Below, piece by piece: positions 1 to 4,659 of a stretch of 32,637 nt of DNA. The position numbers were made by a program, and so were the translations under genes. The first letter of the stretch is position 1. Each line of letters begins with the position of its first letter. The notes below the pieces were generated by a model. It was given only the letters and a program-made list of their open reading frames with translations. It had not been told where the DNA came from and ran no database searches. This DNA comes from a virus, in the UHGV virus genome UHGV-1394707. One strand, written 5' to 3'.

Positions 1-520
<520 letters not shown>

Positions 521-685: not shown

Positions 686-1294
686 TTATACGGCTTTTTT
701 TACATCTTGTGGTTCTTGTGAAGGAGCTACAAGACCTTCCTGTTCATAAATACCATACTTTGACAAAATCTCTTTACGAGTATCTGTTGGTAATGATTCA
801 AGCATTTTGGCTGTTTGTAAGGTTTGTTGCGAAATACCTTGCAAATTAGCCTGGATGGAATCATCGGAAGAAAAAATCTCAGGCATAAGAGCTTCAAATC
901 CTTTCTTTCTGAACAACTCAATCGCAGAATGCAGTTCCTTGTCCTCTAACAATTCGACAATTGCGATCAGTTTAGTTTTCAATGTGCTGCGGTCAGGTTG
1001 AGGATTTTTATTCTCTTGAGTATTTTTATGCTCAACCATTGGCATGCTCTGACTTTGGATAAACCACTCTATTGGACGCCCTGTTGCGTAGGCTATTTGT
1101 GCTAATCGATCTAAAGACGGGTATGTCTTGCCAGACAGGTAGTTTCTGATAACCCCATCAGAGAGTCCGCACTTAGCTGCAAACGCCCGGCTTGATTCTC
1201 CATTCATTGCCTCTTCAAGGCGTTCCTTGAAACGCATTATTTCAGATGGCATAAAAATGCGCTCTGCATTTTTGCTTTCTTTTTCACCTGTCAT
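686..1294 (-). CDS. c: Prophage repressor (positional equivalent of Mu c) with XRE-type HTH N-terminal domain and Mu-c-like C-terminal region
   Basis: Divergent from ner across an operator region. N-terminus ..SRAFAAKCGLSDGVIRNYLSGKTYPSLDRLAQIAYATGRPIEWF looks like a Cro/C1 HTH; C-terminus ..KEILSKYGIYEQEGLVAPSQEPQDVKKAV resembles the Mu c tail as recalled. Start taken at MTGEKESKN (ATG at 1294, 202 aa); the ORF-track start at 1345 has no RBS. Confidence 0.75.
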   Translation of the reverse strand: MTGEKESKNAERIFMPSEIMRFKERLEEAMNGESSRAFAAKCGLSDGVIRNYLSGKTYPSLDRLAQIAYATGRPIEWFIQSQSMPMVEHKNTQENKNPQPDRSTLKTKLIAIVELLEDKELHSAIELFRKKGFEALMPEIFSSDDSIQANLQGISQQTLQTAKMLESLPTDTRKEILSKYGIYEQEGLVAPSQEPQDVKKAV

Positions 1295-1463
1295 GCTCAA
1301 TCTCTCTGTTATATAAAGAATTTTACAGAATGCTTTGATTTGCATTGGTTAAAATAAAAATGCGCATAGCTCTTGAAATGCGCATTTTTCTGCGCTATCG
1401 TTTTTCCCGATAGCGGTAGCCGGTATCAGTTACCGAAAACGTTAAGAAAGTAAGGATCGCAGA
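1295..1463. promoter_or_regulatory. Operator / divergent early promoter region between repressor and ner
   Basis: 169-bp AT-rich gap between divergent genes; two copies of palindrome ATGCGCAT (~1360-1367, ~1378-1385); inverted repeat GCGCTATCG-N7-CGATAGCG (~1392-1415); CGGTA-N5-TACCG (~1422-1436). Confidence 0.6.
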
Positions 1464-1691
1464 ATGTCAGCAAAAAACCAAGACTGGCACGCAGAGCAGA
1501 TAAAGGCTGCTGTTCGTATGAAGGGGAAGACACTATCTCAATTATCCAGAGAGGCAGGCTTAAAGCCTGACACTATGCGTAACGTATTTCGCTGCCATAT
1601 ACCACGATACGAAGCAATCATTGCTAGATATTTGGATATGGAACCAGCCCAGATTTGGCCTTCTCGGTATATGGAGAAAACATCATGTTAA
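1464..1691 (+). CDS. ner: Ner-like DNA-binding early regulator
   Basis: 75 aa, first gene of the early operon, RBS AAGGA; ..[32 protein letters not shown] resembles Mu Ner (..WPSRY tail) as recalled. Confidence 0.8.
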
Positions 1692-3682
1692 CCCATTGGG
1701 TAACAGCGCAAGAATGCGTAGGAATGTCATGCTTTCCTAAACATGAGGTGAGTATTCGCCGCAATCTTGAAAAGCTTGCAGCCAATCATCCAGAACTACG
1801 TCGCAAGCGTACGGGTTCAAAGGCTTTGGAATTTCATATATCAGTTCTGCCAGCGGCAGCACGTGCTGAGTTGTTATTAAAATCTGAGCAAATAGAAACA
1901 AGCCAGGGGTATTTTGAAATCGCCCGCCCCACGCTGGAAGCCCATGATTATGATCGTGAGGTGCTGTGGAGCAAATGGGATAACGCCAGCGATTCCCAGC
2001 GCAGACTTGCTGAAAAATGGTTGCCTGCGGTTCAGGCTGCAGACGAAATGCTGAACCAGGGGATTTCAACAAAAACGGCTTTTGCGACCGTTGCAGGGCA
2101 TTACCAGGTCAGCGCATCCACTTTGCGGGACAAGTATTACCAGGTACAGAAGTTTGCGAAGCCTGACTGGGCGGCTGCGCTTGTTGATGGACGTGGTGCA
2201 TCCCGTCGCAACGTTCACAAAAGTGAATTTGACGAGGATGCCTGGCAGTTTCTGATTGCAGATTATCTGCGACCGGAAAAACCCGCCTTCCGCAAATGTT
2301 ATGAGCGTCTGGAACTGGCAGCCCGCGAGCATGGCTGGAGTATTCCCTCCCGTGCCACGGCCTTTCGCCGGATTCAGCAACTGGACGAGGCAATGGTTGT
2401 TGCCTGTCGTGAAGGTGAACATGCACTGATGCATCTGATACCGGCACAGCAGCGAACTGTGGAACACCTGGACGCCATGCAGTGGATCAACGGCGACGGT
2501 TATCTGCATAACGTCTTTGTACGCTGGTTTAACGGTGATGTGATCCGTCCGAAAACATGGTTCTGGCAGGATGTGAAAACCCGAAAAATTCTGGGCTGGC
2601 GCTGCGATGTGAGCGAGAACATTGATTCAATTCGCCTCTCGTTCATGGATGTTGTGACTCGCTACGGTATCCCGGAGGATTTTCACATCACCATTGATAA
2701 CACCCGTGGTGCTGCGAATAAATGGCTGACGGGAGGCGCGCCCAATCGCTACCGCTTTAAGGTAAAAGAGGACGATCCAAAAGGACTGTTTTTACTGATG
2801 GGGGCGAAAATGCACTGGACAAGCGTTGTTGCCGGTAAAGGCTGGGGCCAGGCAAAACCTGTTGAACGTGCTTTCGGTGTTGGTGGGCTTGAGGAATACG
2901 TTGATAAGCATCCGGCACTGGCTGGCGCATATACGGGGCCTAATCCGCAGGCAAAACCTGATAACTATGGCGACCGCGCTGTTGATGCAGAGCTGTTTCT
3001 GAAAACCCTTGCCGAAGGTGTGGCGATGTTCAATGCCAGAACAGGCCGTGAAACAGAAATGTGCGGAGGCAAACTTTCGTTTGATGACGTTTTTGAGCGT
3101 GAATACGCCAGAACGATTGTGCGTAAGCCTACCGAAGAGCAAAAACGGATGCTGTTACTGCCTGCCGAGGCAGTGAACGTTTCACGTAAAGGCGAGTTCG
3201 CGCTTAAAGTTGGTGGCTCCCTTAAAGGTGCGAAAAACGTTTATTACAACATGGCGTTAATGAATGCCGGAGTGAAAAAAGTTGTGGTCAGATTTGATCC
3301 ACAGCAGTTACACAGCACGGTTTATTGCTACACCCTGGACGGTCGGTTTATCTGTGAAGCGGAATGTCTGGCACCTGTTGCGTTTAATGATGCTGCGGCA
3401 GGCCGTGAATATCGCCGCCGCCAGAAACAACTGAAATCTGCGACGAAAGCAGCAATTAAGGCACAGAAACAAATGGATGCACTGGAAGTGGCAGAGCTGC
3501 TGCCGCAGATAGCCGAACCTGAAGCACCAGAATCACGAATTGTCGGCATTTTCCGGCCTTCCGGTAATACGGAACGAGTGAAGAATCAGGAGCGTGATGA
3601 TGAATACGAAACTGAGCGTGATGAATATCTGAATCATTCGCTGGATATTCTGGAACAGAACAGACGTAAAAAAGCCATTTAA
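1685..3682 (+). CDS. A: DDE transposase, MuA type
   Basis: 665 aa from ATG 1685 (overlaps ner stop, ATGTTAA); the ORF-track frame opens at TTG 1655. Body matches Mu A as recalled; candidate DDE residues in WINGDGY / TIDNTRG / VERAFG; MuA-type N-terminal winged-helix region. Confidence 0.92.
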
Positions 3683-3720
3683 TTAACGTTTAAACAAAAT
3701 TTAATTACGAGGTTATTCAG

Positions 3721-4659
3721 ATGAATATTTCCGATATTCGCGCAGGACTGCGCACGCTTGTAGAAAATGAAGAAACCACCTTTAAACAAATTGCTCTTGA
3801 GAGCGGACTTTCTACCGGAACTATCAGTAGTTTTATCAATGATAAGTACAACGGGGATAACGAGCGTGTTTCACAAATTCTGCAACGCTGGCTGGAAAAA
3901 TATCATGCAGTTGCAGAACTACCTGAACCGCCCCGCTTTGTGGAAACGCAGACGGTAAAACAAATCTGGACAAGTATGCGTTTTGCCAGCCTGACTGAAA
4001 GTATTGCTGTTGTATGTGGCAATCCTGGTGTGGGCAAAACCGAAGCTGCCCGTGAATATCGCCGCACCAATAACAATGTCTGGATGATCACCATTACGCC
4101 ATCCTGTGCCAGCGTTCTGGAATGTCTTACTGAACTGGCGTTTGAGCTGGGAATGAATGACGCACCACGCCGTAAAGGGCCGCTCTCCCGCGCCCTGCGA
4201 CGTCGCCTTGAAGGTACACAAGGGCTGGTTATCATCGACGAAGCTGATCATCTTGGTGCCGAAGTTCTGGAAGAACTCCGCCTGTTACAGGAATCAACCC
4301 GTATTGGCCTTGTGCTGATGGGAAATCACCGGGTTTATTCAAATATGACGGGGGGTAACAGAACGGTTGAATTTGCCCGTCTGTTTTCCCGTATTGCAAA
4401 GCGCACTGCAATTAATAAAACCAAAAAAGCCGATGTAAAAGCTATTGCGGATGCCTGGCAGATTAACGGCGAAAAAGAACTGGAGTTATTACAGCAGATT
4501 GCGCAGAAACCAGGTGCGCTTCGCATTCTGAATCATTCACTTCGCCTTGCCGCCATGACGGCTCACGGTAAAGGTGAGCGTGTTAACGAAGATTATCTGC
4601 GTCAGGCTTTCCGTGAATTAGACCTGGACGTTGATATTTCAACGCTGCTGCGTAATTAA
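3721..4659 (+). CDS. B: Transposition target-DNA activator ATPase, MuB type
   Basis: 312 aa immediately after A; Walker A GNPGVGKT, Walker B LVIIDEADHL. Confidence 0.9.
   Translation: MNISDIRAGLRTLVENEETTFKQIALESGLSTGTISSFINDKYNGDNERVSQILQRWLEKYHAVAELPEPPRFVETQTVKQIWTSMRFASLTESIAVVCGNPGVGKTEAAREYRRTNNNVWMITITPSCASVLECLTELAFELGMNDAPRRKGPLSRALRRRLEGTQGLVIIDEADHLGAEVLEELRLLQESTRIGLVLMGNHRVYSNMTGGNRTVEFARLFSRIAKRTAINKTKKADVKAIADAWQINGEKELELLQQIAQKPGALRILNHSLRLAAMTAHGKGERVNEDYLRQAFRELDLDVDISTLLRN

Follow-up and report, generated by a model that had tools for sequence, protein, structure and literature searches.

A Mu-like prophage in ybdK whose immunity repressor combines an XRE-type head with a Mu c-like C-terminal domain

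In phage Mu, the DNA-binding domain of the repressor is a paralogue of the transposase sub-domain I-alpha, and through this shared domain immunity acts twice, by silencing the early promoter and by a direct block of the transposition enhancer. This shared-domain regulation was reportedly described by Harshey in 1985 and by Mizuuchi in 1986 (both listed in PMC3820752). A review of Mu regulation (PMC3145075) covers the sharing between repressor and transposase and describes the enhancer, the element recognised by I-alpha, as being in partial overlap with the operator region O1-O3. In transposable phages of Pseudomonas, CI-like repressors without relationship to the transposase have been described (PMC9936078). 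Here, the left end of the UHGV virus genome UHGV-1394707 (the whole analysed stretch of 32,637 nucleotides is referred to as the window) was compared with these systems. The window contains a Mu-like prophage integrated in the Escherichia coli gene ybdK, and its c-type immunity repressor (202 amino acids; 686-1294, minus strand) joins an XRE-type helix-turn-helix (HTH) head to a C-terminal half resembling that of Mu c. What is new is that such a head is joined to the C-terminal domain of Mu c within a Mu-matching backbone, and that sister prophages keep winged-helix repressors. The searchable literature, which leaves aside most subscription-journal papers, yielded no account of a Mu c repressor with an XRE head.

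The repressor gene is an intact open reading frame (ORF). As in Mu, D108, SfMu and PhiR68_1, c is the leftmost gene, adjoins attL and is divergent from ner-A-B. The same 609-nt gene model is present in RefSeq for E. coli SE11 and N1286. A longer ORF beginning at 1345 was ruled out in favour of the Met at 1294, at which the RefSeq models and, at the equivalent Met, the homologues begin; the extension would also cross the proposed regulatory region. The cluster of c proteins at 99% identity holds 342 member sequences, and no other repressor candidate was found among the ORFs of the region at the prophage left end.

Residues 16-80 (1055-1249, minus strand) were assigned to an XRE/Cro-C1 HTH domain by Pfam, AlphaFold2 and Foldseek. 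Pfam HTH_3 (PF01381) matched residues 35-78 above its gathering threshold (E 3.1e-7; score 30.8 bits, cutoff 23). Computed from an alignment of 15 sequences, the AlphaFold2 model showed the five helices of a lambda-repressor-like fold (residues 16-30, 35-42, 46-54, 61-71 and 75-79), and the predicted local distance difference test (pLDDT) means of the 10-residue blocks in residues 21-80 were 84-91. A Foldseek search of this model against the PDB returned only XRE/lambda-repressor-like domains (root mean square deviation 1.3-2.6 A over 60-69 residues), among them C.AhdI, SinR-N, DdrO-N, P22 c2, 434 Cro and lambda cI; the deviation was 1.3-1.5 A for C.AhdI, SinR-N and P22 c2. Neither a Mu repressor nor a MuA I-alpha structure was among the 50 PDB matches listed, and a sequence search of the PDB gave marginal XRE matches only (E 0.3-0.8). 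The segment SDGVIRNYL is the probable recognition helix of the head.

The C-terminal half belongs to the Mu type. Its helical domain (residues 100-184; 743-997, minus strand) was recognized by identity to the Mu and PhiR68_1 repressors, by a phrog_7148 match and by AlphaFold2 helices within residues 102-179. Over residues 105-202, identity was 53% to Mu c (E 1e-17) and 57% to PhiR68_1 c (E 6e-26); over the C-terminal half, including the VKKAV end, identity to the repressors of Mu, D108, SfMu and PhiR68_1 was 39-58%. The family phrog_7148, which matches only the Mu-c-like half, gave E 5.8e-21. Between head and C-terminal domain lies a predicted disordered linker (residues 83-98; 1001-1048, minus strand; AlphaFold2 pLDDT below 50), the length and sequence of which vary across the XRE-headed family. 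The protein ends in a likewise disordered tail (residues 185-202; 689-742, minus strand; pLDDT below 50) that closes with VKKAV, an ending common to Mu, PhiR68_1, P0016, P0018 and P0019; other family members end in KKAG, KKTG or KHIG. By analogy with Mu, the tail of c may serve as a ClpXP-sensitive regulatory tail. These findings bear out the original prediction that an XRE-type HTH is fused to a Mu-c-like C-terminal region; its proposed profile search placed HTH_3 in the head, and its proposed structure prediction gave the five-helix XRE fold described above.

The C-termini of the transposases (3665-3682 in the window, and in the relatives) end in RRKKAI or KRKNAI and resemble the repressor ends across all module types. 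In MuA, ClpX is known to recognise the tail as a signal.

The c protein is itself a mosaic of three parts. Residues 1-82 make up the XRE head, residues 100-147 resemble Citrobacter-type XRE repressors (82% identity over 45 residues to c of locus L008), and the part from about residue 160 onward shows 95-97% DNA identity to Mu and PhiR68_1. The third part adds the sub-domain GISQQTLQTAKMLESLP...KEILSKYG and the tail, both of which the Citrobacter-type proteins lack. Judged from these identities, the last approximately 43 residues of c were acquired by recombination from a Mu/PhiR68_1-like c. The sub-domain is present in the XRE-headed protein P0021 of Yersinia similis and in the Photorhabdus-type members, and the full architecture is therefore older than the recombination in the window c.

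Searches for the domains of other repressor classes delimited the family of c further. An S24 peptidase domain gave no match in c at E up to 1 (Pfam). No named repressor family of NCBIfam reached its curated cutoff; the sole match was RstR, with 20.7 bits against 80. The CI-like repressors of Pseudomonas phages (Casadabanvirus such as JBD88a; B3-like RepC) resemble c in their left-end position and in an HTH head that, in the Casadabanvirus comparison, is 46% identical, and a Vibrio cholerae Mu-like prophage has a related repressor. However, the Pseudomonas and Vibrio proteins carry an S24 self-cleaving peptidase (Pfam E given as 1e-22 to 1e-25; 6e-25 for the Vibrio relative and 9e-22 for JBD88a), whereas c carries a Mu-c-type domain. 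The c protein is thus an XRE-family DNA-binding protein and, because it lacks the S24 domain, not a CI/LexA-type self-cleaving repressor. It belongs with the Mu/D108 repressors by its C-terminal domain with the KKAV-type tail and by its genomic position, and stands apart from them by its head, which in Mu and D108 is a winged helix paralogous to MuA I-alpha.

The absence of this paralogy was assessed by direct comparison of repressor and transposase. Sub-domain I-alpha of transposase A (residues 1-70; 1685-1894, plus strand) is of a subtype distinct from those of Mu and D108, with 34-40% identity to these two and 80% to L008. In agreement with the prediction that the transposase N-terminus is MuA-like, Pfam HTH_Tnp_Mu_1 (PF02316) matched A residues 10-144 with E 2.1e-30. 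BLASTP (word size 2, E cutoff 1000) gave no alignment between the N-termini of c and of its own transposase, whereas the same procedure aligned the corresponding pairs of Mu, D108, SfMu and PhiR68_1 at 42-67% identity (E 9e-15 to 1e-26). When nine N-termini of XRE-type c and fifteen of the I-alpha/Mu type were compared profile to profile, hhalign returned a probability of 0.2%. The whole-protein PF02316 score of c was 18.8 bits, below the threshold of 23.3, and that of Mu c was 182.7. This sub-threshold signal, the only Mu-family Pfam signal in c, lay outside the head: it joined residues 103-170 to profile positions 76-133, which in Mu c are the columns after the DNA-binding domain. The predicted lack of similarity between the two N-termini was therefore upheld, and the repressor/transposase paralogy that defines Mu and D108 immunity is absent in this phage. 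Since PF02316 spans both regions, homology of the c C-terminal domain to MuA I-beta was also considered; it was rejected, as hhalign gave a probability of 1% when 20 C-domains of c were compared with 12 segments of A (residues 63-185).

The unusual repressor is part of a larger exchanged unit. Window positions 1-347 are ybdK sequence with 99.7% identity to the intact gene in the best-matching genomes, and a match to this flank was present in 5407 of 5426 complete E. coli genomes. The Mu left end (attL region) with the c 3' end (348-819) is 95-97% identical in DNA to Mu and PhiR68_1 by megablast and blastn, and this identity stops at 805/819, inside c. It is followed by a 1.07-kb heteroimmune cassette (820-1891) comprising the first approximately 160 codons of c, the operator region, ner and A codons 1 to about 69; the left crossover thus falls within c, near codon 160. 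The cassette had no blastn match in the left ends of Mu, D108, SfMu and PhiR68_1, the four compared. Identity to these phages returns at 1891/1892, around codon 70 of A, and the remainder of A (1895-3682, plus strand) is 98-99% identical to all four. The original prediction of a domain swap was partly right: the DNA-binding head was exchanged, but by the blastn breakpoints the unit that entered the Mu backbone is the whole cassette and not the domain alone. As far as sequence comparison goes, such a cassette in a Mu backbone resembles the classical heteroimmune difference between Mu and D108, and it belongs to a second class of Mu-like immunity modules.

At the right boundary, Mu, D108, SfMu and PhiR68_1 all regain identity at one nucleotide, 1891/1892, in the I-alpha/I-beta linker of A (IETSQG). 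This junction is a recombination point shared by immunity cassettes.

Only two of the 5426 complete E. coli genomes, SE11 and N1286, carried the cassette. The module was found at three different insertion sites, namely ybdK in the window, yfcI in SE11 and the PTS IIC gene next to agaD in N1286, and it is therefore functional in nature. The SE11 element has been listed as the 'Mu-like' prophage PP_SE11-7 in yfcI (PMC2608844); its insertion target is yfcI in that genome paper and a partial Rpn-family gene in RefSeq.

The fusion is not a one-off. The full length of c matched phrog_3037, annotated as phage transcriptional repressor (E 1.2e-23; residues 5-191 against profile positions 10-184 of 189), and c is a member of this unnamed family, for which there is no NCBIfam model. 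The combination of XRE head and Mu-c-like domain recurs in at least 15 other Mu-like modules, from Citrobacter and Logan assemblies, Klebsiella phage Kp4866-3, Yersinia phage vB_YpM_5 and prophages of Photorhabdus, Xenorhabdus and Yersinia. A search of 5.8 billion proteins returned XRE-headed relatives at 46-73% identity, one from Citrobacter portucalensis and the others from Logan assemblies. Every relative for which the context was fetched lay at the left end of a c-ner-A-B-kil(-gam) prophage, this gene order was identical in all relatives examined, and Kp4866-3 and vB_YpM_5 have the same arrangement. The gene is named 'C-repressor', without comment on its type, in the Yersinia phage paper (PMC10434027). 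phrog_3037 and the XRE-headed c genes of other Mu-like prophages (C. portucalensis P0007, Kp4866-3, vB_YpM_5 and those of Photorhabdus, Xenorhabdus and Yersinia) share with the window the two-part architecture, the operator layout and the I-alpha subtype. They differ in that the backbone around the window copy has, in all comparisons made, 95-99% DNA identity to Mu and its named relatives, and those of Citrobacter type lack the terminal sub-domain that the window c took from a Mu/PhiR68_1-like c. An exhaustive search with the C-terminal 103 residues of c found 16 representative clusters in 1.84 billion proteins, which suggests that the Mu-c-like C-domain is rare and, as far as seen, specific to phages and prophages.

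Two of these clusters, P0029 and P0030, have N-termini that are winged-helix domains of the same subtype as the window transposase. The sister prophages with such repressors (loci L018, L020 and L025) share with the window a homologous early promoter (Pe), the repeats downstream of it, the Ner protein (80-89% identity), the A I-alpha sub-domain (54-59%) and the c C-terminal domain (38-49%), whereas the c N-termini show no similarity. The sister repressor heads aligned with their own transposase at E 1e-21 to 1e-23 and with the window transposase N-terminus at E 1e-18 to 1e-21; the window c head aligned with neither its own transposase nor the winged helix. Both head types thus occur on a homologous C-domain within one ner/A lineage, and the DNA-binding head has therefore been exchanged within this lineage, as predicted, in one direction or the other.

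In one direction, XRE-headed repressors would have come first in the Mu-like phages of Gammaproteobacteria, and Mu and D108 would owe their winged helix to a later event in which the 5' end of A was copied into c. Species-representative genomes were scanned for the I-alpha subtype of the window, which yielded 18 loci. Ten of them, prophages of Photorhabdus, Xenorhabdus or Yersinia, combine an XRE head with a Mu-c-like C-domain of the long form. In a Vibrio cholerae prophage, the same XRE head is joined to an S24 peptidase, and a single Apirhabdus genome accounts for two loci of the winged-helix type, the one intact and the other truncated. Two further loci are of the window's own type, one in Shigella flexneri with its c region disrupted by an insertion sequence (IS) and one in E. 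coli, in which no intact c ORF was found. The predominance of XRE heads in this sample and their occurrence in transposable phages of both Vibrio and Pseudomonas would fit an older XRE form. However, both head types are present in the ner lineage nearest the window, so that exchange may have run either way and more than once, and we give the older-XRE scenario somewhat less than even odds. Irrespective of direction, one XRE head pairs with two alternative partner domains, S24 or Mu-c-type, in transposable phages.

In the S. flexneri copy (locus L022, strain SFBU1023), an IS3-family element (orfA/orfB) at 1168-2324 splits c-ner of a 99%-identical module, and truncated c fragments from Shigella (P0004, P0011) are present in the protein database. 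These disrupted copies look like decaying prophages.

The region between c and ner is 169 bp long, as in Mu when counted from the start of the 196-amino-acid c. A promoter scan identified a sigma-70-type, Pe-like early promoter (TTGAAA-17-TATCGT; 1373-1401, plus strand) that leads into ner and A, and its position is conserved in L008-L015, L018, L020 and L025. Two candidate operators flank or overlap this region. The first, O_A (1253-1273), is the inverted repeat AAAAATGCG-ctc-TGCATTTTT inside the c codons A-E-R-I-F, with a weaker half-site beside it at 1233-1241. An inverted repeat with a 3-bp gap at this place reached the scan threshold in the window and in L013, L015, L026, L031 and L035, and weaker copies were seen by eye in L008, L010 and L014. 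The second, O_B, is a perfect 12-nt inverted repeat around the Pe -35 element, AAAAATGCGCAT-10 nt-ATGCGCATTTTT (1356-1367 and 1378-1389). Repeats around the Pe -35 were present in 12 of the 15 XRE-type loci, with 9-nt arms, at most one mismatch and a gap of 15-16 nt. The motif AAATGCGC occurs four times in 1255-1387 and eight times in the whole window, against 3.2 expected.

The arm sequences vary by locus (TGCG, TTCG, TACG, ACCG or CACG) and agree within a locus wherever both sites were found. The in-gene site of L013 encodes the Arg by CGA and not by CGC, and this synonymous substitution fits the TTCG arms of the locus. Such co-variation is a signature of protein-binding sites, and O_A and O_B are likely operators of the XRE head. 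As in the Mu/D108 type, about 100 bp separate the two clusters, and the 5' end of c contains one of them; the Mu and D108 operators, in contrast, are CTTTT-type repeat arrays and not inverted repeats of AAAAATGCG.

The prophage of V. cholerae ATCC 14035 (L026, 149-1006) encodes the same XRE head on an S24 C-domain, and the same AAAAATGCG arms bracket the -35 element of its early promoter, as in the window. It thus appears that the XRE head moves along with its operators, whatever the partner domain.

The presence of an IHF site in the stretch separating the operator clusters was considered and rejected: a scan for the strict IHF consensus WATCARNNNNTTR found none there in the window and, among the XRE-type relatives, only one in L013. 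In Mu the consensus is found at 947, between the two repeat clusters, the region of the Mu IHF site.

Downstream of ner's promoter, a second group of repeats was distinguished. The ner gene (75 amino acids; 1464-1691, plus strand; Pfam HTH_35, E 1.9e-25) encodes a protein 42% identical to Ner of Mu and D108 and 80-92% identical to that of L008, L010, L015, L018, L020 and L025. Inverted repeats just downstream of the -10 element (1393-1435; CGCTATCG/CGATAGCG and CGGTAGCC...GTTACCG) are candidate Ner operators. CGGTAnCCG inverted repeats are found in all loci with this Ner type, the winged-helix sisters included, whichever repressor type they carry, and the window repeats occupy the position equivalent to the CCGTGAGCTAC inverted repeat at 996/1015 in D108, which we take to be the D108 Ner site. 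By this analogy, the repeats at 1393-1435 are probably Ner operators. An attempt to tell Ner sites from I-alpha sites by co-variation gave no assignment of the downstream repeats, because Ner type and I-alpha subtype change together across the available loci.

Taken together, we propose, with a probability of roughly 0.8, that the locus is a second-class immunity module in which a two-part, XRE-headed c on a flexible linker represses Pe cooperatively from two operator clusters. The layout of c would be that of an XRE head, a flexible linker, a Mu-c-type helical C-terminal domain and a lysine-rich tail. The heads would bind the AAAAATGCG half-sites of the inverted repeats at 1253-1273 and 1356-1389, and we infer that the Mu-c-like domain multimerises and so tethers several heads, leading to cooperative occupancy of both clusters. 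Occupied clusters would shut Pe and keep ner, A and B off, and Ner would bind the repeats at 1393-1435. As c lacks an S24 peptidase domain, release from repression is expected to follow the Mu route, by repressor loss or proteolysis through the C-terminal tail and not by RecA-stimulated self-cleavage.

Several points weigh against this model. The operator assignment comes from comparative sequence alone, and the residues of the recognition helix do not map one-to-one onto the arm sequences across the family. The arm spacing differs between the clusters (3 nt as opposed to 10-16 nt); flexible tethering of the heads would therefore be needed, which is assumed from the disordered linker. Unlike Mu, the window has no IHF consensus between its clusters. 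The model of the C-terminal domain is moderately confident, with block pLDDT of 75-85 for residues 101-140 and 51-76 for residues 141-180 and a predicted template modelling score of 0.35. Finally, induction through ClpXP and the tail is a route carried over from Mu.

The loss of paralogy bears on the transposition enhancer. Between the window and L008, I-alpha of A has a nonsynonymous rate (dN) of 0.12 and a synonymous rate (dS) of about 1.9 (dN/dS approximately 0.06), which indicates strong purifying selection; I-alpha therefore still binds something, and an enhancer probably still exists. Repressor and transposase would no longer be able to share it by means of homologous domains. Immunity may, as the original prediction had it, be coupled to the enhancer in a different way; the analysis located no I-alpha binding sites. 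A possible reading, to which we give somewhat less than even odds, is that two paralogous domains no longer read operator and enhancer as a single element. Either the XRE head would have come to overlap the I-alpha sites, a case of convergence on one control region, or direct competition would have been given up. These two possibilities are rated about equally.

If direct competition was given up, the repressor would act only on transcription from Pe, and the enhancer, if any, would consist of separate sites free of repressor. The two DNA-binding domains share no sequence or profile similarity, the XRE-type loci have no Mu-type multi-copy repeat array, the IHF consensus is missing, and transposase-unrelated CI-like repressors are already the rule in Pseudomonas transposable phages (PMC9936078), all of which would suit a purely transcriptional repressor. 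On the other hand, the conserved I-alpha must bind somewhere, and strong conservation among the non-coding elements is confined to the XRE arms, Pe and the Ner-like repeats. We regard this purely transcriptional mode as plausible, though short of probable.

In the other case, the I-alpha sites would lie on or next to the XRE half-sites, and the non-homologous repressor would exclude the transposase sterically, as the Mu repressor does at O1/O2. The placement of two clusters about 100 bp apart, one in the c 5' end, is similar to the Mu O1-O2/enhancer geometry, and a T-rich CTTTTG-type element in the Pe spacer of the sister loci L018 and L025 sits where the right XRE arm of the window sits; the strong constraint on I-alpha also speaks for such overlap. 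However, the similarity of the Pe spacers may reflect common descent. Moreover, CTTT[TG] repeats were enriched only in the three winged-helix sister loci (4-5 copies, P 0.005-0.03) and in no XRE-type locus (0-3 copies, P 0.1-1.0), so that an attempt to locate I-alpha sites by transferring this motif gave a negative result, a weak one because the motif had been chosen by eye from the sisters. Steric overlap is possible, though likewise short of probable.

That c arose by a recent chance fusion, or is a remnant in decay, and does not work as the repressor is very improbable and largely refuted, for although the left crossover lies inside the gene (about codon 160) and some Shigella copies are truncated or interrupted by insertion sequences, the ORF is intact, its 99%-identical cluster has 342 members, the module occupies three independent insertion sites, the architecture is kept across genera with co-varying operators, and the left end offers no other repressor candidate.

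A phage that matches Mu and its close relatives at 95-99% wherever compared thus breaks the paralogy rule, and yet it has inserted at no fewer than three chromosomal sites; paralogy of repressor and transposase is therefore not obligatory for a working Muvirus. The locus provides a ready-made system for asking how much direct competition between repressor and transposase contributes, with the winged-helix sisters, which share the homologous Pe, C-domain and Ner-type repeats, as matched controls. If operator and enhancer are indeed no longer a single element for both proteins, it would, with overlapping sites or without, be a natural separation-of-function variant in which the transcriptional and anti-transposition roles of the Mu repressor could be tested apart. 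In practice the gain is modest: one more heteroimmune type is added to those of Mu, D108/SfMu and PhiR68_1 for use in Mu-based tools.

Two relatives differ from the window in the neighbouring genes. Gene B of Yersinia phage vB_YpM_5 (L004) is 99% identical in DNA to the window (region 3590-4159), and no blastn-detectable match to c, ner or most of gene A was found in this phage; a second mosaic boundary therefore lies near the A/B junction. In the XRE-type relative L015, ner and A are about 530 bp apart, whereas elsewhere they overlap, and an extra ORF of 153 amino acids, with no function assigned, lies between them on the opposite strand (3142-3603).

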